DNA from: Eledone cirrhosa
Lineage: Eukaryota
Reading direction: 5' to 3'
NCBI GenBank assembly: GCA_964016885.1
Contig: OZ024746.1
Location: 53,258,001 to 53,322,000, forward strand
Length of the DNA: 64,000 nucleotides
The notes under the pieces: generated by a model
Database searches by the model: none
What the model saw: only the letters and a program-made list of their open reading frames with translations
Told to the model about the DNA's origin: nothing
Position numbers and translations under genes: made by a program
In this document: positions 6,571 to 52,907 of the stretch, piece after piece
Layout of the letters: each line of letters opens with the position of its first letter
Numbering within the stretch: the first letter of the stretch is position 1

Positions 6571-6773
6571 AACGAGTAGGACGCCGACGGCTGAGCTCGA
6601 GCCGTTTTGACGGCTAATTCTGGACTAAAATGATTTTAGTCCAGAATTAGCTGTCGAAACGGCTTGAGCTCAGCCGTCGGGGTCCTACTCGTTCCTATTA
6701 CCCACTCTACTACCCTAAGTATTGAGTACTTTGGTGCGTTATGGTCCATCTGGTTCCTTACCACATTTCCTTC

Positions 6774-8000: not shown

Positions 8001-8813
8001 GGGTATCTCCACAAAATGTATACACACTTTGATTACCTGTACAGGCAATATTTATTAGAATGCTGTGGAAGTGTGTAAACATTTTTTGGGGGACATCCTG
8101 TGTGTGTATATATGTATATATATATATATATGTTTATATATATATATGTATATACATACATATACACACAGATACATATATATGCTTATATGTGATATGT
8201 GTGTACATATATACATATATATACACACACTCTTATACCTATAACAGGCAAACCAGAATTTGGGCACCATAGGAATAATGAAACTATTTGTATGTTTTAT
8301 TTCAAGGAATTCAGAGAAAAAATATTCCTTTAATATCTTAATATCCTATCTATAGTGCAGGAAACTGCATTAGCAAAGTATTAAACAACACTAAATCTTA
8401 ATCATATCAATTGAAGTCTATACTCTAATATTGCAAATTTTCAATGATCTGTCTACTAGTGAAGACACTATAAACATTTGATAAACAGATCCATTCTTAA
8501 GTATATTACCTCCTGTAATGATTTTTGAAATCATTACAGGAGGTAAAATATTACGTTTCTTTTTTATTAACATATTTCTAGTGAAGTAAGATAACATGTA
8601 AGGATTAGATAACTAAAATTTAGGTCTAATAATAAAACATTACTTTTATTGTTTTTACATTTAACTATATTCCTATGGTGTGTGATGTCTGATTTACCCT
8701 GTACATATACATCACTTATTACATGCAAATATATATCTACAAACAAACATGCACATGTATTAAAAAATATATATATTTCTTCATAACCAAGTGAATGTTT
8801 CTTATTTACTATG

Positions 8814-14170: not shown

Positions 14171-14604
14171 CATCACCATCACCGTTTTACGTCCATTCTT
14201 CCACGCATGGGTTAGACGGGTTGCCCCGTTGTGGGCAGTGTCCGGTCGGCTGACCTTGTCTTGCTCATACAGGAACTGACTCTGGCTTGATTTCTACAGC
14301 TGGATGCCCTTCCTAACACCAACCTCATTTACAGTGAGTGCTGGGTGCTTTTTTCCCATGGCGCCTACACGTCCACTTTACAGTTTGGGCTGGGTGCTTT
14401 TTTGCCGTGGCACCTCCATGAGCACTTTGCAGTGGAATGATAGGGACCCCAGTCCTATCATCTCATTTCTACAGCTGAGTAAACTGGAGCAATGTGAAAT
14501 AAAGTGTTTTGCTCAAGGAAACAACACATCACCCGGTCTGAGAATTGAACTCACAACCTTTCGATTGCAAGCCCAATGCTCTAACCACTAAGCCATGCAC
14601 CTTC
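14171..14604 (-). mobile_element. tRNA-derived SINE inserted in a TTAA MITE
   Basis: Similar to 42287-42635. Interrupts the MITE at 14127-14745. Confidence 0.8.
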
Positions 14605-20782: not shown

Positions 20783-22339
20783 AGGGCTGGTTATAATTAA
20801 TGATAAGAGGTAGGGCAGTTAATTTAATAAGTAAATATAGATAGCTTTATAAATATAGATAACTGCATGCATACACACACAGTACATAGTCGGGATTGGC
20901 CCTACTATTTAGGTCAACTAAGCTGAAGTGGGGCATTTTACAGAACCTTAAAGAATTAACTTTATATGAATATATATATATAATTGCTTGCATTCAATGA
21001 ATAAGTTGCTGAATATCTTTGCCACATAATAATACTGTAGAAATACCCCAAAGTGGTGGAGAGGTCTGTATGGTGTTTGACCTGTCTTATGATTTGATGT
21101 GGGTGAATGTGGATTATGTAGGGGAAACTGCAGGCTTACTAACTGTTTCAGTGTAGCCAGAACATGAATTGTTGAAAACTAGGTTTGTGAGCTCACCAAG
21201 GTTGAAATTAACTTTGAGATAATGGAGTTTATAACTGAAGGAATGGAGCACACATGTAGGTCTAATTTTGAGTACTAAATACCCAGGTGCCAGTCTAGCA
21301 TGTGGTTGTGGTTTGGACCCAGGTCATCCCTGATTGAGCAAGAGTTGCAATGAAATACATTGCAGCTGTAGCCATCTTGTCCTTTTAGAAGTATATAGTA
21401 CAACATTATCATTTAATAAGTCTTTTTCTTACTTAAAACAGTAGGATAGAATTTCAGAGTGATTTGGTTGCCAAGTTAGGAGTTGAATCTGGCACTCCAT
21501 GTTAAAGCATTTGTCACCCCCACCCAACTTGTCCTCTATACACACATTGCCATATCAAGGCAAACCTCCACAAAAAGCCTCCACCATACTGACAAACAAC
21601 AACACTATTAGCCTGATTTTAAGATAAAGCTATTAAAGGTGAAAATACAACAGCTAGTCGGGCAGGGGGTTATGGAGAAGAATACACATTAATCTTATTT
21701 CACCCTAAGATAATCATGTATATATATGATGCTCACTATCACCTCTGCAATAATTACAACCACCACTACTACCATTGCAATGACACTTCTATTACTACTA
21801 CTATCATCATCACCACCATTGCAACTTCACACACAGCAATGCTACTGGTGGTAGTGATAGTAATAGCTGTTGCTACAGCCCACACCTATATAGGGTTAGC
21901 TGAAGTTGAATCTCACAGGAGGTTTCTGGTAGTGTTATAAGGGTCACAGGACTACCAAGAAAATACAACAATCCATCTCTTGATAAGATGCCAGTCCGTT
22001 GCAGGGTTAATATTCCCCAAGTGGAGTGTCTTGCTCAAGGATATGATGATAGTAGTAGTAGTAGTAGTAGTAGTAATGACAGTCATAGGAGGAATATTCA
22101 TGTTGGTGCTGGAAGTAGTAGTAACCACAATAGTGACTACAGTAAATCACTGTACATAAATATAAAACCTTGGTTTAATCCTTAGTTTAATGAAGACACA
22201 CTACTTCTACTACTACCACCACCACTACCACTACTTATCCTTGATCCCAAGATTATTACAACTAATCCTCAAATTGCTAATGCTGCTGCTATCAGTGGTT
22301 TAATTATACTACTACTTCCATGTCTCTCAAATGTACACA

Positions 22340-24280
22340 GCAACACTACCACCAATCTTACAGCACCACAACCACCAATACTACAGCAGCACTACCACCA
22401 ATACAACACCACTACCACCAATACTACAGCACCACAACCACCAATACTACAGCACCACAACGACCAATACTACAGCACAACAACCACCAATACTACAGCA
22501 CAACAACCACCAATACTACAGCACCACTGCCACCAATCCTACAGCAGCACTACCACCAATACAACACCACTACCACCAATACTACAGCACCACAACCACC
22601 AATACTACAGCACCACAACGACCAATACTACAGCACCACAACGACCAATACTACAGCACAACAACCACCAATACTACAGCACCACTGCCACCAATACTAC
22701 AGCACCACTACCACCAATACTACAGCACCACAACCACCAATACTACAGCACCACAACGACCAATACTACAGCACCACAACAACCAATACTACAGCACCAC
22801 AACCACCAATACTACAGCACCACAACCACCAATACTACAGCACCACAACCACCAATACTACAGCACCACAACCACCAATACTACAGCACCACAACCACCA
22901 ATACTACAGCACCACAACCACCAATACTACAGCACCACAACCACTAATACTACAGCACCACAACCACTAATACTACAGCACAACTACCACCAATACTACA
23001 GCACCACAACCACCAATACTACAGCACCACAACCACCAATACTACAGCACCACAACCACCAATACTACAGCACAACTACCACCAATACTACAGCACCACA
23101 ACCACCAATACTACAACACCACTACCACCAATACAGCACCACTACCACCAATACTACAGCACCACAACCACCAATACTACAGCACCACAACCACCAATAC
23201 TACAGCACCACAACCACCAATACTACAGCACAACTACCACCAATACTACAGCACCACAACCACCAATACTACAGCACCACAACCACTAATACTACAGCAC
23301 AACTACCACCAATACTACAGCACCACAACCACCAATACTACAGCACCACAACCACCAATACTACAGCACCACAACCACTAATACTACAGCACAACTACCA
23401 CCAATACTACAGCACCACAACCACCAATACTACAGCACCACAACCACCAATACTACAGCACAACTACCACCAATACTACAGCACCACAACCACCAATACT
23501 ACAACACCACTACCACCAATACGGCACCACTACCACCAATACTACAGCACCACAACCACCAATACTACAGCACCACAACCACCAATACTACAGCACCACA
23601 ACCACCAATACAGCACCACAACCACCAATACTACAGCACCACAACCACCAATACTACAACACCACTACCACCAATACAGCACCACTACCACCAATACTAC
23701 AGCACCACAACCACCAATACTACAGCACCACAACCACCAATACTACAGCACCACAACCACCAATACTACAGCACCACAACCACCAATACTACAGCACCAC
23801 AACCACCAATACTACAACACCACTACCACCAATACAGCACCACTACCACCAATACTACAGCACCACAACCACCAATACTACAGCACCACAACCACCAATA
23901 CTACAGCACCACAACCACCAATACTACAGCACCACAACCACCAATACTACAGCACAACTACCACCAATACTACAGCACCACAACCACCAATACTACAACA
24001 CCACTACCACCAATACTACAGCACCACAACCACCAATACTACAGCACCACAACCACCAATATTACAGCAGCATTATCACCAATACTACTGCACCACAACC
24101 ACCAATACTACTGCACCACTACCACCAATACTACTGCACCACTACCACCAATACTACAGCACCACACCACCAATACTACAGAAACCACTACTACCAATAC
24201 TACAGTACCACAACCACCAATACTACAGCACCACTACCACCAATACTACAGCACCACAACCACCAATACTACAGCATCAC
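22340..24280. repeat. 23-bp minisatellite (CCACCAATACTACAGCACCACAA)n, ~84 units
   Basis: Direct tandem array with some 20-bp variants. Source of the 663-aa pseudo-ORF. Confidence 0.95.
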
Positions 24281-24499
24281 AATGTAGTGGAATACTCAGC
24301 CACTCACACTATGGATCAATGAATAGACTGTTCCATTGACTGGACAACTGGAACAGCTATCTTCAAAGCTGATAGAGAAGGTACATGGCCTAGTGGAGAA
24401 GGTGTTATGATCATAAGGCTGAGGGTTCAATTCCTGGAATAGTTAGTGCATTATATATTCTTGAGCAAGATTAATTTCCCATTACCTTTCATGAGAGGG

Positions 24500-38683: not shown

Positions 38684-38756
38684 GACCACATGGCCTAATG
38701 GATAAGGCGTCTGACTTTGAATCAGAAGATTGCGAGTTCGAGTCTCGTTGTGGTCG
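38684..38756 (+). tRNA. tRNA-Arg(TCG)-type body with TTG anticodon; probable pseudogene or SINE head
   Basis: 73-nt cloverleaf: acceptor GACCACA/TGTGGTC, D stem GCCT/AGGC, anticodon stem TCTGA/TCAGA with loop CT-TTG-AA (38717-38719), T arm GCGAG-TTCGAGT-CTCGT. No oligo-T terminator follows; a SINE-like tail does. Confidence 0.8.
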
Positions 38757-39707
38757 CAGATGCATTCATTACAGGGGTGGTGCCCAAGCATGGCCTCAGC
38801 CGGGTGGCTGGAATAGGTAAAAGAGTATACTCAGGTAGAAATTAACATTTTATCCTCACCAAAAGACCTAAATGCTCAACTCTTTTGATACCAACTCATC
38901 TGAATATGTTTGTGTTAAAGCTCAAATTAAAAATAGGGCAACAAAATCATTAAATTGTATATACTTATTCAAAAGCTTTTCCTCAGAATTTTATGTAAGA
39001 TCATTTGTTAAGCTCCAAGCACCAGCTTAACACTTCAGCATTTAAACCGGCCATATCCAGCCAGAATTCTCTCACCTTTTTCTGTTTAAACTGGTCATAA
39101 CTGGTCACTCATACTGATGTTAAGGTATTGTTCTCAAAATAAATATAAAAATTCCATAGATTCAATAAGACGTGAGATAATTATTTGAAGGGTTAATAAT
39201 GAAAAAGATCATTTTCAAAGCTATTTAAACTTTAGGCAGTGTTTCACTTTGAAATACAGTCATGAAAGAGTTAGAAGCAAACCTAAAGTACATTGCTGAT
39301 AGTACACAAAAAAGGAGTGGGCACATAAATCTCCAAAGCCTAGAAACACTCATAGAACTGATAATTCCTCAACTGCTACCACTACAATCTTTCCCTACCA
39401 TTTCTCACTGCCAATGATGTACTAAGTTTATATTCTTCACTACAAAATCACCAGCTGTTACAGATTTATATGCCTGATCCCTAATCACAAAGGTTGTAGC
39501 CAAATTCTTTAAAATCCCTGAGCTCCCACCAACCAAATTACTTTTTCTTCAATGCATTGCTATGTTTTGATATTTTAGGAAAAAAGGATTGGTTTCTGAA
39601 CACTCGCAACAACACATTTTTCTTTTCTTAAAGTTTTTGACACACAAAAACAGAAGCAAGCGCACAAGAAAGATTCTAAAATGAAAAATTCCAAAAGTCC
39701 TACATAC

Positions 39708-42288: not shown

Positions 42289-42635
42289 CATCATCATCAT
42301 CATCATTTCATTTTACGTCCGCTTTTTCCCTGCTTGCAAGGGTGGGACGGGAACTGATTCTGGCTTGATTTCTACAGCTGGATGCCCTTCCTAACACCAA
42401 CCTCATTTACAGTGAGTGCTGGGTGCTTTTTTTGCCGTGGCACCTCCACGACCACTTTGCAGTGGAATGATAGGGACCCCAGTCCCTATCATCTCATTTC
42501 TACAGCTGAGTAAACTGGAGCAATGTGAAATAAAGTGTCTTGCTCAAGGAAACAACACATCACCCGGTCTGAGAATTGAACTCACAACCTTTCGATTGCA
42601 AGGCCAATGCTCTAACCACTAAGCCATGTGCCTCC
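42287..42635 (-). mobile_element. Young tRNA-derived SINE (CORE-like CCTTGAGCAAGACACTT, (ATG)n tail)
   Basis: A-box TGGCTTAGTGG and B-box GAGTTCAATTC. Near-identical copies at 46954-47293, 48541-48873 and 52235-52563. Confidence 0.85.
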
Positions 42636-42637
42636 AT

Positions 42638-42693
<56 letters not shown>

Positions 42694-42842
42694 TAAAAAA
42701 ATAATGAATAAAACAATGAAACAGTTCCTTATATTAAACAAAAAAAGTTCATTATTTAACGATCGTTTCTAGGATATATATGTGTTAGAATTGGCATGCA
42801 TATTCAACAGATCTATGTACAATATTATGTAGATTTATCTAC

Positions 42843-42873
<31 letters not shown>

Positions 42874-42876
<3 letters not shown>

Positions 42877-43070
42877 TTAATATAGATGAGATTCTACAGG
42901 ACTAGAACTGTTTCATTCATTAGAAATCATCAGGAATCATTCCTGATGATTTCTAATGAATGAAACAGTTCTAGTCCTGTAGAATCTCATCTATATTAAA
43001 ACTGTTATACTCTGCTATGTATTGAGTACCTTACTTACTGTGGTTACCTCCGATTCAACCCGGAATAACG
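42874..43070 (+). mobile_element. (TA)n-embedded palindromic hammerhead element, copy 1
   Basis: Perfect 64-bp arms (42874-43002) with a 1-nt spacer at 42938. HHR on + (42939-42985: ATTC-CTGATGA-TTTCTAATGAAT-GAAA-CAG-loop-CTG-TA-GAAT) and on - (42890-42938). Confidence 0.8.
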
Positions 43071-43101
<31 letters not shown>

Positions 43102-44774
43102 TTTTCGAAATATTTACTTTTGCGTTCACAGATTGATTATTTTAGTTTCAGAAGATCCCATTAAGGGTGAAAGCAGCGATTCTTTGCTTAAACTTTAATC
43201 TGTCATTTTAATATATATATAATTATATATTCGTGTACAGATATTTTTGCATACACAATAACAAAATATAAACAAACGTATTTATTTCACGAGGCTTGAT
43301 AAGGATAAATATATATCAAATATATAAGAACCCTAGAGCAAATCCTGAGCAACGCCAGGCCATTCTGCTAGTATTATCTAAAATACTTTCATAATTTCAT
43401 GCCAAGTGAATATAAAATTTTGATGAATCTTTAAGTTATGTTCCAAATATTAACATGAGACAGTTCAGTGCTGTTTTGTGTGCGTTTTAAATTCTTGGAT
43501 TAATCATTTAGCATTTAAACTGCCCATATCTAGCCAAAATTCTCTCACACCTTTCTGTTCAAACTGGCTGTAACCAGCCACTCATACTGATGTTAAGGTA
43601 TTATTCTCAATACAAATAATATTAAAATGTCATAGATTTGATATTAACTAAGAAAATATAATAGTAAATATAGAGTAATGTTAAAGCTAAAGGGTTAAAC
43701 AGTTTGTCATGCTCTGAGACTAGACAGGTCATATGACGAGGTTTGCTCATACACTCCATTTTGGCATGGTTTCTATGGTGGGATACTCTTCTACTTTACA
43801 GTGTGTACTGGGTGAATTTTCTTGTGGCACCAGCACCACTATCTTATAGACTGAGCTGGGTGATTTTATAGCACCAGCACCATCTCTTTACAACATCAGG
43901 GTGCTTACTAAATTACTTCAAATTCTTTCGTTATTTCAAAATTATTTGAAACTTTCAATAGAAATATAAGAATGAAAAGTTTATCAGTTATCCAACAATG
44001 GTGGTCACTGTATTTAAATTTCTCACAAATTACACCATATTACTTCAACACTTAATATCCTGTAATAATTTAATAGAAAATATCTAAAAACAGTTTAATT
44101 CAAATGCTTGTAGACAAATCACACTGAAAATTTGCAGGATTTGAGTTAAGACTTTCATTGTAATGAGACCATCATAGTGCTGTTTTGTATTTTTGAAGAA
44201 TGCTTTGCTAACATGGTTTCATGTAGTACAAGACATTAAAAATTAACTATTCTGTAATGAATTTCAGAAAGCAAAATCAGATTTGTTAAATCAAATAAAG
44301 TGTCTTTATTAGTAGACAGATTATGAAATATTGCAGTAGCGAAAAATATGATGTAGTCATAGTGCTGTTTTGTACTTTTCAAGACTATCTCACTAAATGT
44401 GGTACAGGATATTAAGAATTAAAAATGAATAACACACAGGAGAATGTAGTCTTAGATTCACCATGTTTGAAAATATAAATTCCTCATAGGTTTACTAGAC
44501 CAAACTCAATCCACAGCTAACCAGCAAACTGATACATTTTTCTTAGATAACAAGCTTCCATTTTAAATGTTACTTGGAGAATGTGATGAGGTTATGGTCC
44601 AACCCAGCTTTGTCCATCTTAGAACAGCAAGGCAAAGACCATCAACCCTTCCAGCTTTGTCCATCACAGAACTGCTAGGTTAACAAAGGGAGATTATCTG
44701 CCCTTCCTGGTCAACAAAATTGAAAAGAAGGCAAGGTAGTGAGATTAACCTCTCAACACTCCTTTTATACTGGA

Positions 44775-45315
44775 GAAGGGAGAAAGGGAGGAGAATGAGA
44801 AGGAGGAACGGGAGGAGAATGAGGAGGAACGGGAGGAGAATGAGAAGAACGGGAGGAGAATGAGAAGAACGGGAGGAGAATGAGAAGAACGGGAGGAGAA
44901 TGAGAAGAACGGGAGGAGAATGAGAAGAACGGGAGGAGAATGAGAAGGAGGAACGGGAGGAGAAGGAGGAACGGGAGGAGAATGAGAAACGGGAGGAGAA
45001 TGAGAAACGGGAGGAGAATGAGAAACGGGAGGAGAATGAGAAACGGGAGGAGAATGAGAAACGGGAGGAGAATGAGAAGGAGGAACGGGAGGAGAATGAG
45101 AAGGAGGAACGGGAGGAGAATGAGAAGGAGGAACGGGAGGAGAATGAGAAGGAGGAACGGGAGGAGAATGAGAAGGAGGAACGGGAGGAGAATGAGAAGG
45201 AGGAACGGGAGGAGAATGAGAAGGAGGAACGGGAGGAGAATGAGAAGGAGGAACGGGAGGAGAATGAGAAGGAGGAACGGGAGGAGAATGAGAAGGAGGA
45301 ACGGGAGGAGAATAT
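44775..45315. repeat. Polypurine minisatellite with 18/20/24-bp units (GGGAGGAGAATGAGAAGGAGGAAC)
   Basis: Homogeneous blocks of three unit lengths. Confidence 0.95.
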
Positions 45316-46953
45316 AATAAGAGTATAGAGGAAGTGATGATGTCAGGGTAAGAGGAGTAGGATGAGATAGGGGAGGTAAAGGAAGGATGGGGTGTAGGAA
45401 GAGGAGATAGAAGAGGTAAAGGAGACAGACAGGAAGACAGAAAGTGAGTAAGAAATAGGAGGGGTGGGGCAGTGGGTGGAAGAAGGAGGGGTTAAACCAA
45501 GCCACAGGACTTCTTGAACAATTAAGACACTGATGTCTACAGGAAACCAATAACACAGAGACACATACACAATAACATACACACAAACAGATACACTAAC
45601 ACACACAAGACTACACCCAGGCATATACACTAATATACACATTAATAAAAGACATTAAAATACAGATGCAGACTAATACACACACACACACACGCAAACA
45701 AAATACACACACACACATGCAAACAAAATATACACACACACACACACACTTCTATAACCACACACACAGTAATCTGAATCTGACATCCCCACCACATTCT
45801 TATAACTCTAAACCAAACCCTGTTATGCACTCTCCTCAAACATAAAGGAAAAACCATATATATTTCACACACACAAGACAGGTGTGTAAATCTGAGATGC
45901 AAGCACAAATATATATACACACACATTACATAGACAATACTACACACACACATCTAGTCCTGAAGCTAGGGAAGGAAGGCCAGACAGTAGACCTAAATGT
46001 AATACAACTGTCTCTTCCCACTACCACCACCACTACTCTTTAGTGTATATGGAGGGATAGGGAGTCTATCATACCTTTTATTCTATCAACCCCTTGCATT
46101 CAATCTCCTATTCTTTCAGTATTCATTCATGACTTTTTCCTTGGCTGGTTCTCTCTCACTTATTGTGTTTGTTCCTTTTTTAAACACATTCTTGTATTCC
46201 CTCAATCCTTTGCACTCCTCTTCTTCCTTGGCTGGTCTTCCTCACCATTGTGTTATAAACAAACGCTCTCCACATGGAGACACACACAGACCACAGCAAG
46301 TAACAGTAATAGAGGGGAGAGGCTACTGCTGGCTTCTCAGTTAGTGCTGTTGTAGGGTAGGTAGGGTGGGTAATCCCTTAGGGGTCAGTCATTCCTAACA
46401 AAGAACATTGCCCCCTCCTCTCTCTTTTTCTAACTTCCTTACTGACCCAGTTTAATCTGTATCCTTATCTTTAGAAAAAGAAATTCACCCCAATTCCCTG
46501 TCTTTTTGTTGCATTTAACTGTCCCACCCACCAATGACTACATATAAGTTCTCTAGTTGGCCCCCTTCCTCAAGGCTGTCCCTCCATCACAAACCAACAA
46601 GAGATCCTGTATGCGGTTGCTGGACCTGCTAAAAATAATAGCAAATGATCTTAAGATAGAAGAGGTGGGTGAATTCATTAGATAATGTAGTCCTAAATAA
46701 CCTGGAAGAAATTTCCTCATAGGTCTGCTTAACCATATTGATAGCAAAATTCCTAAAACTGTCCCTGATTCTTCACTACAGAAATGTTTGTTTTAAAGTA
46801 TTTAAAAAACTTTCCATTATAATTTTATGTCAGAACTTTTATGTGCCAAACACAAACAGAGTGAAAAAGTTATTCTACTACTAAAAATCTCTCCAATTCT
46901 TGTTTATCTTCAAAATAATTTTAAAATCGCAGGCTGTGCCTTTCATTAAGAAT

Positions 46954-47293
46954 TCATCATCATCATCATTTCATTTTACGTCCACTTTTCCCTGCTTGCA
47001 AGGGTGGGACGGGAACTGATTCTGGCTTGATTTCTACAGCTGGATGCCCTTCCTAACACCAACCTCATTTACAGTGAGTGCTGGGTGCTTTTTTTGCCGT
47101 GGCACCTCCACGACCACTTTGCAGTGGAATGATAGGGACCCCAGTCCCTATCATCTCATTTCTACAGCTGAGTAAACTGGAGCAATGTGAAATAAAGTGT
47201 CTTGCTCAAGGAAACAACACATCGGTCCGAGAATTGAACTCACAACCTTTCGATTGCAAGGCCAATGCTCTAACCACTAAGCCATGTGCCTCC
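46954..47293 (-). mobile_element. Young tRNA-derived SINE copy
   Basis: Near-identical to 42287-42635. Confidence 0.85.
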
Positions 47294-47536
47294 ATATATA
47301 TATATATATATATGTATTAGGTATAAACCGAAGTTATAACTGCTATATATCGGGTACTAAGTTGTTTGAGACAATCACAAAGCACTCAGAGCGGAAATGT
47401 AATACATTGTCCAGAGTAAACAACAGTTAAAAAGTGACACCAGGAAAAATGACAGAAGGAAGTGGCCATACATATACCACAACAACGATTAATACAGAAA
47501 GGTTGGAAACCATATATATATATATATATATATTAT

Positions 47537-47730
47537 CGTTATTCCAGGTTGAATCGGAGGTAACCACAGTAAGTAAGGTACTCAATACATTGCAGAGTAT
47601 AAAAGTTTTAATATAGATGAGATTCTACAGGACTAGAACTGTTTCATTCTTTAGAAATCATCAGGAATCCTGATGATTTCTAAAGAATGAAACAGTTCTA
47701 GTCCTGTAGAATCTCATCTATATTAAAACT
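47537..47730 (-). mobile_element. (TA)n-embedded palindromic hammerhead element, copy 2
   Basis: Same family as 42874-43070 in the opposite orientation. Perfect 63-bp arms (47604-47730), spacer at 47667, HHR core on both strands. Confidence 0.8.
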
Positions 47731-48240
47731 ATATATATATATATAGGTTGGCACCAGTGACGTCGTAACTCATTTCTACAGCTGAGTAAACTGGAACAAC
47801 GTGAAATAAAATGTCTTGCTCAAGGACAACGCATCACTCAGTCTGAGAATCAAACTCACAACCTTTCAATTGCAAGCCCATAGCCTTTCCATTGGACAAC
47901 ATCGGTGTTGTGGAGAGGGGAGGCTGGTATGCATGGGCGACTGCTGGTCTTCCTCAAACAACCTTGCCCAGACTTGTGCCTCAGAGGGAAACTTTCTAGG
48001 TGCAAATCACAAGTCACTCGCGACTGAAGGATGTGTGTGTGTGCGCACCATGTGATTGATTTTGTCTTTCATCTTCCTATTACCAAACTAAGTCATTGAG
48101 CCAATGTGATCAACTACACTTTTCAGGGTGATGTCACAGCATAGCTACAGTTGAGTAACCAGATTAAGGGGTTTAAAAATCCCAGGCAGTGCCTATCAAC
48201 TAAATCTCTTAAGCAGTCTAATGACGGAAACCAGTAAAAG

Positions 48241-52040: not shown

Positions 52041-52907
52041 ATTCATTTCATTTTACGTCCACTTTTTCCCTTTTTCCCTGCTTGCAAGGGTGGGACGGGA
52101 ACTGATACTGGCTTGATTTCTAACACCAACCTCATTTACAGTGAGTACTGGGTGCTTTTTTGCCGTGGAATGATAGGGACCTCAGTCCCTAGCATCTCAT
52201 TTCTACAGCTGAGTAAATATATATATATATATATGGAGGCACATGGCTTAGTGGTTAGAGCATTGGTCTCGCAATCGAAAGTTTGTGAGTTCAATTCTCA
52301 GACCGGGTGATGTGTTGTTTCCTTGAGCAAGACACTTTATTTCACATTGCTCCAGTTTACTCAGCTGTAGAAATGAGATGATAGGGACTGGGGTCCACTG
52401 CAAAGTGGTCGTGGAGGTGCCACGGCAAAAAAACCACCCAGCACTCACTGTAAATGAGGTTGGTGTTAGGAAGGGCATCCAGCTGTAGAAATTAAGCCAG
52501 AATCAGTTCCCGTCCCACCCTTGCAAGCAGGGAAAAGCGGACGTAAAATGAAATGATGATGATGAAATGATATATTGAAGGCACATGGCTTAATGGTTAG
52601 AGCATTGGGCTTGCAATCAGAAGGTTGTGAGTTTGATTCTCAGACTGGGTGATGCATTGTGTCCTTGAGCAAGACACTTTATTTCACATTGCTCCAGTTC
52701 ACTCAGCTCTAGAAATGAGTTGCGACGTCACTTGTGCCAAGCTGTATCGAATTTTGCCTTTACTATGGACATGAACGGTGTTGTGAAGAGAAGAGACAGG
52801 TATGCATGGACGACTGCAAGTCGTCCACAAACAACCTTGCCCTGACTTGTGCCTCGGAAGGAAACTTTCTAGGTGTAAATCCCATTGTCATTCGTGATCG
52901 AAGGGGG
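52041..52907. mobile_element. SINE cluster: partial minus copy (52041-52216), plus copy (52235-52563), plus copy with tail type 2 (52577-52907)
   Basis: Matches to the SINE copies above. The first two copies face each other across (TA)n. Confidence 0.8.

Follow-up and report, generated by a model that had tools for sequence, protein, structure and literature searches.

We analysed a 64,000-nucleotide (nt) stretch of the Eledone cirrhosa genome (contig OZ024746.1, forward-strand positions 53,258,001 to 53,322,000; hereafter the window), in which two palindromic units carry a hammerhead ribozyme motif in each arm. An exact-complement scan confirmed the two units of about 195 bp that had been predicted from the sequence, with perfect arms of 63-64 bp around a 1-nt spacer: the palindrome of copy 1 (42874-43002) measures 64+1+64 bp and that of copy 2 (47604-47730) 63+1+63 bp, and a 68-nt one-sided extension brings each unit to its full length. 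Copy 2 lies as the reverse complement of copy 1, and (TA)n flanks both copies on each side. Between the palindrome interiors, the only substitution is a base in the loop of hammerhead stem II, where copy 1 has TAAT and copy 2 TAAA, the two arms of each copy agreeing. The centres differ in addition by 4 nt, or 2 per arm, and the 68-nt extensions hold three further differences. The loop change is indeed mirrored in both arms, but it is not copy-specific as first thought, since TAAT/TAAA is a dimorphism of the whole family. The scan found no other non-microsatellite palindrome with arms longer than 19 bp in the window. Short perfect hairpins with 19-bp arms, at 6613-6651 and 8506-8546, are unrelated to the palindrome family.

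Genome copies were counted by sequence pattern, with reversed patterns as controls. A 34-nt arm motif had 14,713 exact matches in the genome and its reversed control had 0. Some copies continue into a reading frame; one locus, L048, holds an intact open reading frame (ORF) of 713 amino acids that starts 180 nt after +1 (the G of GATTCC being numbered +1). The first 120 amino acids of this ORF are 100% identical in many copies, so the family is young. The 713-residue protein has 1,404 homologues at E≤1e-20, none of them named among the 120 matches listed; a Pfam search did not match a reverse transcriptase in it and gave a weak C-terminal GIY-YIG match (E=0.012, under the Pfam cut-off). By eye, it agrees motif by motif with the Hydra-clade proteins in the parts of the PMC8557442 supplement used here. 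Its translation contains the DKT motif, the CxCx5C linker, and CxxC and CxH around E and N that characterize this clade; the ORF region is shorter than 3 kb and the targets are (TA)n, and where the clade has RWK the parent has RWR. Judged by these sequence features, the parent is a Hydra-clade Penelope-like retrotransposon with a C-terminal endonuclease (EN+). The palindromic units consist of its first 133 nt and an inverted copy of 59-68 nt, joined head to head within (TA)n; in the window they comprise parent positions +1/+2 to +133 and the inverted stretch from +1/+4 to +65/+66 (Table 1). Pseudo-long terminal repeats (pseudo-LTRs) made of partial tandems with an inverted, 5'-truncated partner were seen in L048, L060-L062, L236, L242 and L261. 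A multi-kb TA/TG microsatellite spacer, variable between copies, parts the 3' pseudo-LTR from the ORF in L048 (2250-5960) and L061.

Table 1. Parts of the two palindromic units and their targets, in window positions.
Feature	Position	Strand	Basis or remarks
(TA)n target left of copy 1	42846..42873	no strand	sequence
Copy 1 inverted arm	42874..42938	-	+1 to +65, no tail
Copy 1 main arm	42939..43070	+	+2 to +133; blunt join to inverted arm; colinear with 5' region of ORF-bearing L046-L048
Copy 1 tail	43003..43070	+	68 nt, one-sided, +66 to +133; between the two putative reverse-transcription start sites
Type I hammerhead motif, copy 1	42939..42985	+	core motifs, helix I covariation; 4-bp helix III; predicted cut after 42981
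Helix I 5' strand, copy 1	42939..42942		
Core CUGAUGA, copy 1	42943..42949		
Loop TAAT, copy 1	42954..42957		
GAAA, copy 1	42962..42965		
(TA)n target right of copy 1	43071..43098	no strand	sequence
(TA)n target left of copy 2	47512..47536	no strand	sequence
Copy 2 main arm	47537..47669	-	+1 to +133; tail 47537-47604; hammerhead loop TAAA
Copy 2 inverted arm	47668..47730	+	+4 to +66; 2-nt microhomology shared with main arm
(TA)n target right of copy 2	47731..47745	no strand	sequence

The hammerhead motif spans element positions 0 to +50, with a helix I of 6 bp, a helix II of 3 bp and a helix III of 4 bp. The core CUGANGA, the GAAA, an NUH site and the three helices are all present, and 99% of the aligned cells are paired. 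The alignment holds those 10 of 23 loci (L046-L048, L266-L285) that had a core match of this family, L048 not being aligned; 11 of the 20 loci L266-L285 had no core match, and the match in L273 was unrelated. L273 carries, near position 640 on the minus strand, a second hammerhead motif belonging to another repeat family. Compensatory changes occur across subfamilies at two helix I pairs (10 aligned loci), whereas helices II and III are almost invariant and therefore uninformative on covariation. The G10.1-C11.1 pair is absent, a U.U closing helix II in 10/10 aligned rows. Rfam did not call a hammerhead at gathering or E-value thresholds, and when single arms were folded without constraints, the z-scores were unremarkable and the hammerhead fold was not returned. 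As read from the sequence, helix I is incomplete in the window copies, which have 4 or 5 of its 6 bp; in copy 2 the + strand shows one mismatch. The assignment as a predicted ribozyme rests on the core motifs and helix I covariation. Metazoan Penelope hammerheads showed weak cleavage in vitro in the data of PMC4209133 considered here. The original prediction had proposed that read-through transcription would give a ribozyme masked by its own antisense arm. Folding agrees with this: the hammerhead has a predicted energy of -5.4 kcal/mol compared with -109 to -116 kcal/mol for the whole palindromic units, and since the hairpin is so much more stable, a read-through transcript is predicted to fold as a duplex of about 60 bp that hides the ribozyme. 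Nothing shows, however, that the palindrome is selected or transcribed, and masking looks like a by-product.

To study the junctions, we took from each concordant loop class (TAAT or TAAA in both arms) the 50 loci that were listed first, 100 in total and all on one contig. A single tail oriented 97 of them, L067 having no tail and L143 and L164 a signal on both sides; among long palindromes, 14 of 15 likewise had one tail per insertion. At least one arm reached +1 to -1 in 72 of the 97 copies and none went beyond -1; the 17 cases at -1 were all without insert (17/17), so that they can be put down to overlap with the partner arm. An untemplated G stood next to an arm end at A(0) in 15 of 17 clean cases with an insert (P=4e-6), i.e. 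in 8/8 on the main arm and 7/9 on the inverted arm, and in L123 and L170 it was found on both arms around a 1-nt spacer. A TATA box, TATAAATA, lies at -30 in the parent and is retained in older subfamilies, and the site at position 0/+1 fits the initiator consensus. From the sharp 0/+1 boundary, the extra G and the TATA box, we infer that capped transcripts begin with the first base of helix I. Untemplated G is described as a mark of copied caps in LINE-1 and SVA (PMC4859970, in the part used here). Genome-wide, only 65 palindromes have their axis within or after the hammerhead core, which argues that the RNA template was uncleaved. Two other readings were rejected: ribozyme cleavage as the origin of the axis, because the cut is about 45 nt downstream of it and so few palindromes have their axis further in, and a splice acceptor in the TTTTTT...CAG just upstream, because the arms retain the AG and no constant upstream exon follows.

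We consider it probable that reverse transcription is primed by both target nicks, at two start sites of a single RNA that is capped and uncleaved, and that the ends of the two complementary DNAs (cDNAs) are then joined. Two primed cDNAs fit the junctions directly. Among the 97 copies, the longer arm was the main one in 47 and the inverted one in 39, the arms being equal in 11; in 18 copies the inverted arm was longer by at least 3 nt without any insert. The outer end of the inverted arm lay at +59 in 34/97 and at +65 to +68 in 46/97, and tail-less non-inverted copies also end at these positions. The joints showed a 1-3-nt overlap in 49 copies, were blunt in 11 and held an insert in 37. Elements with a tail-less inverted arm had their tail at the far end in 3/3 cases (L257 and L255 being uninformative and L242 ambiguous as to the far ends of long elements), and in L061, L062 and L257 the tail was on the inverted or shorter arm.

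A simple fold-back, which the original prediction had entertained, is disfavoured by these data. According to this explanation, the cDNA folds at its own 3' end, or an antisense template primes itself as put forward in PMC3846280, and is copied back until a jump to the target, with later trimming of the centre blurring the arm lengths. It would account together for the identical arms and the coupled inner ends; the commonest junction (7/97, including copy 2) is compatible with a snap-back of 2 bp around a loop of 3 nt, and the stops at +59 show TA microhomology with the target. Yet an inverted arm that exceeds its own template, as in the 39 copies mentioned above, requires extra steps if a tail-bearing cDNA has folded back. 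The inverted arm moreover has its own untemplated G, which in L123 and L170 faces that of the main arm across the spacer; its +65 to +68 end equals the end of non-inverted copies; and the centre base of copy 1 is templated by the inverted arm only. We therefore regard fold-back as unlikely.

If the arms are two cDNAs, they could have been copied from one RNA or from two. Both arms extend upstream of +1 in 174 palindromes detected by genome pattern. A pattern that admitted a short partner as well gave 378 matches, and 6 of its first 100 rows paired a long with a short arm by eye, which corresponds to about 23 such pairs; at least 1,470 would be expected if the arms were independent. Among 15 long pairs the inner ends were correlated (rho 0.77; 12/15 within 16 nt of each other), and in L061 arms of 3.6 kb are 98% alike across the microsatellite spacer, which is itself 79% alike to that of L048. 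Since long arms rarely pair with short ones and inner ends correlate, the two arms appear to have been copied from one place on a single template, with L060, L061 and L202 as exceptions. A rival is twin priming on a pair of RNAs from one source locus, carried in a dimeric particle; it would be compatible with the shared variants if a single source prevailed at any given time, and the T and A variants do differ in age; some long pairs also have unrelated ends. One locus can, however, give both kinds of template site, so that mixing would be expected, contrary to the scarcity of long/short pairs and the correlation of the long ends. This makes two RNAs quite improbable, about as unlikely as fold-back.

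Arms of one palindrome were evidently made together and then decayed apart. Pattern matches with centres of up to 30 nt comprised, genome-wide, 1,093 TAAT/TAAT, 2,003 TAAA/TAAA and 20 mixed palindromes, against a random expectation of 1,425 mixed; the reversed-pattern controls for these counts had 0 genome matches. The discordant 20 of 3,116 represent 0.64%, while 0.36% is predicted from later A/T mutation alone. A second shared variant, +52 A>T, was mirrored in 9/9 carriers. The comparison of arms within and between copies, by which the original prediction was to be judged, was made on 96 copies (L157 being dropped) and gave a divergence at +27 to +57 of 1.7% per site within copies versus 2.5% between copies; 51 changes were unmirrored and 3 private changes were mirrored. 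The rarity of loop discordance and the mostly unmirrored private changes indicate that the arms were identical at the start and have since mutated independently. Divergence between arms was 1.3% in the T class and 2.2% in the A class, indicating that the T class is younger. Older subfamilies contribute 1,703 further palindromes, of which the 50 listed share the axis at the helix I edge and have, by eye, largely mirrored loops.

The 97 copies contained 63 different junctions, which shows that the palindrome does not spread as a unit and, together with the rare loop discordance, bears out the prediction that the inverted arm is regenerated at each insertion. The alternative offered at the time, homogenisation by conversion, considered here together with cruciform repair after insertion, could claim the 3 private mirrored changes, but it is contradicted by the predominance of unmirrored ones and by the within-copy divergence, mirrored changes being mostly shared source variants; we reject gene conversion on this ground and hold any such homogenisation to be most improbable. 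The same very low likelihood applies to the idea that the palindrome is under selection as a double-ribozyme element that propagates itself, or as an antisense switch, for which one could invoke the at least 4,800 palindromes, the core motif on both strands and the strong predicted hairpin: the junctions are diverse and the recurrent ones occur in both orientations, there is no internal promoter, helix I is often truncated, and the arms decay by unmirrored mutation. A miniature inverted-repeat transposable element or other DNA transposon was excluded by the one-sided tail, the variable ends and the diversity of junctions.

Least probable of all is an assembly or long-read fold-back artefact, which could appeal to the fact that no read joined either window copy to unique flanks (TA repeats were skipped, and read support is at the family level), since an independent short-read contig (X1 record 2) crosses the axis with 35 and 47 nt per side, nine X1 contigs have centres that are 2-3 nt shorter, raw Illumina reads contain the arm-to-arm joints (19 reads, 3 starts in X19), unmirrored arm mutations increase with subfamily age, and the tail is one-sided. 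The read runs possibly come from another individual or species. The flanks of copy 1 (window 42700-42830 and 43100-43260) are high-copy repeats with deep read cover, and similar flanks lie beside L025 and L026. In the raw reads, 61-nt units of the hammerhead also follow one another head to tail, each with a short linker upstream, in a retrozyme-like arrangement (joint 42999 to 42939; 68 reads in X19, 24 in X20).

Priming of two cDNAs on one capped RNA could proceed as follows. RNA polymerase II would start 30 nt downstream of the TATA box, on the A with which hammerhead helix I begins, and the RNA would be capped. The endonuclease of the element would nick both (TA)n strands; on the same uncleaved RNA, one nick would prime at +133 and the second at roughly +59 to +66. 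The trailing enzyme would displace the first cDNA, which would require a reverse transcriptase without RNase H; to our knowledge, the reverse transcriptases of the Penelope-like class lack this activity. Both cDNAs would be extended as far as the cap, whose copying would add an extra C, and their 3' ends would be trimmed, joined through 1-3-nt microhomology or short inserts, and filled in. Having no promoter, the resulting palindrome would be a dead-end copy.

Several observations weigh against this mechanism. The extra G could also arise if the cDNA end snapped back on the complement of helix I; this predicts CAT, seen in 2/17 cases plus clearly in one match of the long-arm pattern. The age difference between the T and A classes weakens the chance expectation for loop concordance. 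L060, L061 and L202 are long pairs with unrelated inner ends. None of the 28 ORF-bearing copies with usable matches (out of 30, L236-L265) starts at 0/+1, 23 starting upstream (11 of them by at least 419 nt) and 5 downstream; whole elements hence need longer-than-unit templates, such as tandem read-through RNAs or circles, which the model leaves unexplained. The start sites of the Anolis element PAc are the same for both strands, according to the sections of PMC11167929 used here, whereas in our data nearly every insertion uses one of each. Finally, the junction sample consists of the first 100 loci listed on one contig, with centres of at most 30 nt only. L250 and L252 start at +51/+52, near the predicted ribozyme cut.

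A broader proposal, which we put forward tentatively and would not call probable, is that Penelope-like elements integrate by double-ended priming on one uncleaved capped RNA from two fixed starts. The inverted pseudo-LTR and the one-sided tail would then stem from one mechanism, and the ribozyme would be the first 51 nt of the messenger RNA; capped uncut RNA would yield dead-end palindromes, and promoter-bearing whole copies would arise from longer-than-unit templates, possibly ribozyme-cut circles. Priming of two cDNAs on one RNA, as set out above, would explain a long-known, unexplained feature of Penelope-like elements. With its at least 4,800 independent minimal insertions, the family allows models to be told apart by their junctions, and it also has young intact copies. 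The likely transcription start maps to the base that begins hammerhead helix I. If read through, the near-perfect 60-bp hairpins, which number in the thousands, could feed double-stranded-RNA pathways.

Elsewhere in the window, ARAGORN called a transfer RNA (tRNA) gene, Gln(TTG), at 38684-38757; we take its body to resemble tRNA-Arg, possibly with a change of anticodon. Near-identical tRNA-related repeats resembling short interspersed nuclear elements lie at 42300-42637, 46957-47295 and 14538-14595, and partners in inverted orientation are found near 52233-52565. Two tandem arrays are also present: a minisatellite with some 84 units of 23 bp at 22187-24340 and a GA-rich array at 44780-45310.

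The link to the inverted pseudo-LTRs of Penelope-like elements, suggested in the original prediction, is supported. Inverted 5'-truncated pseudo-LTRs, a one-sided tail and palindromic inverted junctions are reported for endonuclease-bearing Penelope-like elements in the parts of PMC3846280 and PMC8557442 used here. Our units share with these elements the head-to-head inverted copy, the tail at one end, the palindromic joint, the pseudo-LTR hammerhead and the simple-repeat targets; they differ in the minimal form of about 195 bp present in thousands of copies, in the axis at the predicted capped start and in the tail, which is 68 nt here and 30-40 nt there. PMC3846280 proposes self-priming on an antisense template, whereas our junction counts favour two RNA-primed arms; PMC8557442, in the part considered, names the origin of tandem and inverted Penelope ends as an open question. 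With its short single ORF, DKT, CxCx5C linker, CxxC, CxH, (TA)n targets and hammerhead, the parent resembles Hydra-clade elements such as Hydra-1_Obim (PMC8557442). It is not Hydra-1_Obim itself: it has RWR for RWK, its protein and hammerhead differ by eye from those listed for Hydra-1_Obim, and two motifs of the hammerhead region are both absent from the supplement.

For the Anolis PAc element, both strands were cut and extended in vitro, with two internal start sites bounding the tail and an uncleaved RNA template (PMC11167929). The same three features are proposed for our family, and two primed cDNAs thus agree with the lizard element. The lizard ORF overlaps the ribozyme, unlike the ORF found here, which begins well downstream of it, and the sections of PMC11167929 used gave no account of inverted products or of the joining of two cDNAs. 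In the literature searched, we found no proposal of twin priming or of a cap-side axis for Penelope-like elements; subscription journals, including several key Penelope papers, lay outside this search.

In LINE-1 twin priming, a second nick primes on the same RNA and small insertions or deletions are found at the inversion point, the inverted part being a non-overlapping upstream segment. Here, unlike in LINE-1, both arms copy the same stretch, and a palindrome results. The extra G, here attributed to the cap, is a feature shared with LINE-1 and SVA (PMC4859970). Non-LTR retrozymes, as described in the part of bioRxiv 10.64898/2026.07.22.740005 considered here, are similarly non-coding, carry a type I hammerhead and are related to Penelope pseudo-LTRs, but they consist of head-to-tail tandem units, whereas the palindromes are single head-to-head pairs with individual junctions; the window copies are such single pairs, and we rejected a retrozyme assignment for them. 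The value of the family thus lies in mechanism and not in a new kind of element: compared with these systems, its architecture is known, here in a minimal and very abundant form, and the mechanism is newly constrained.

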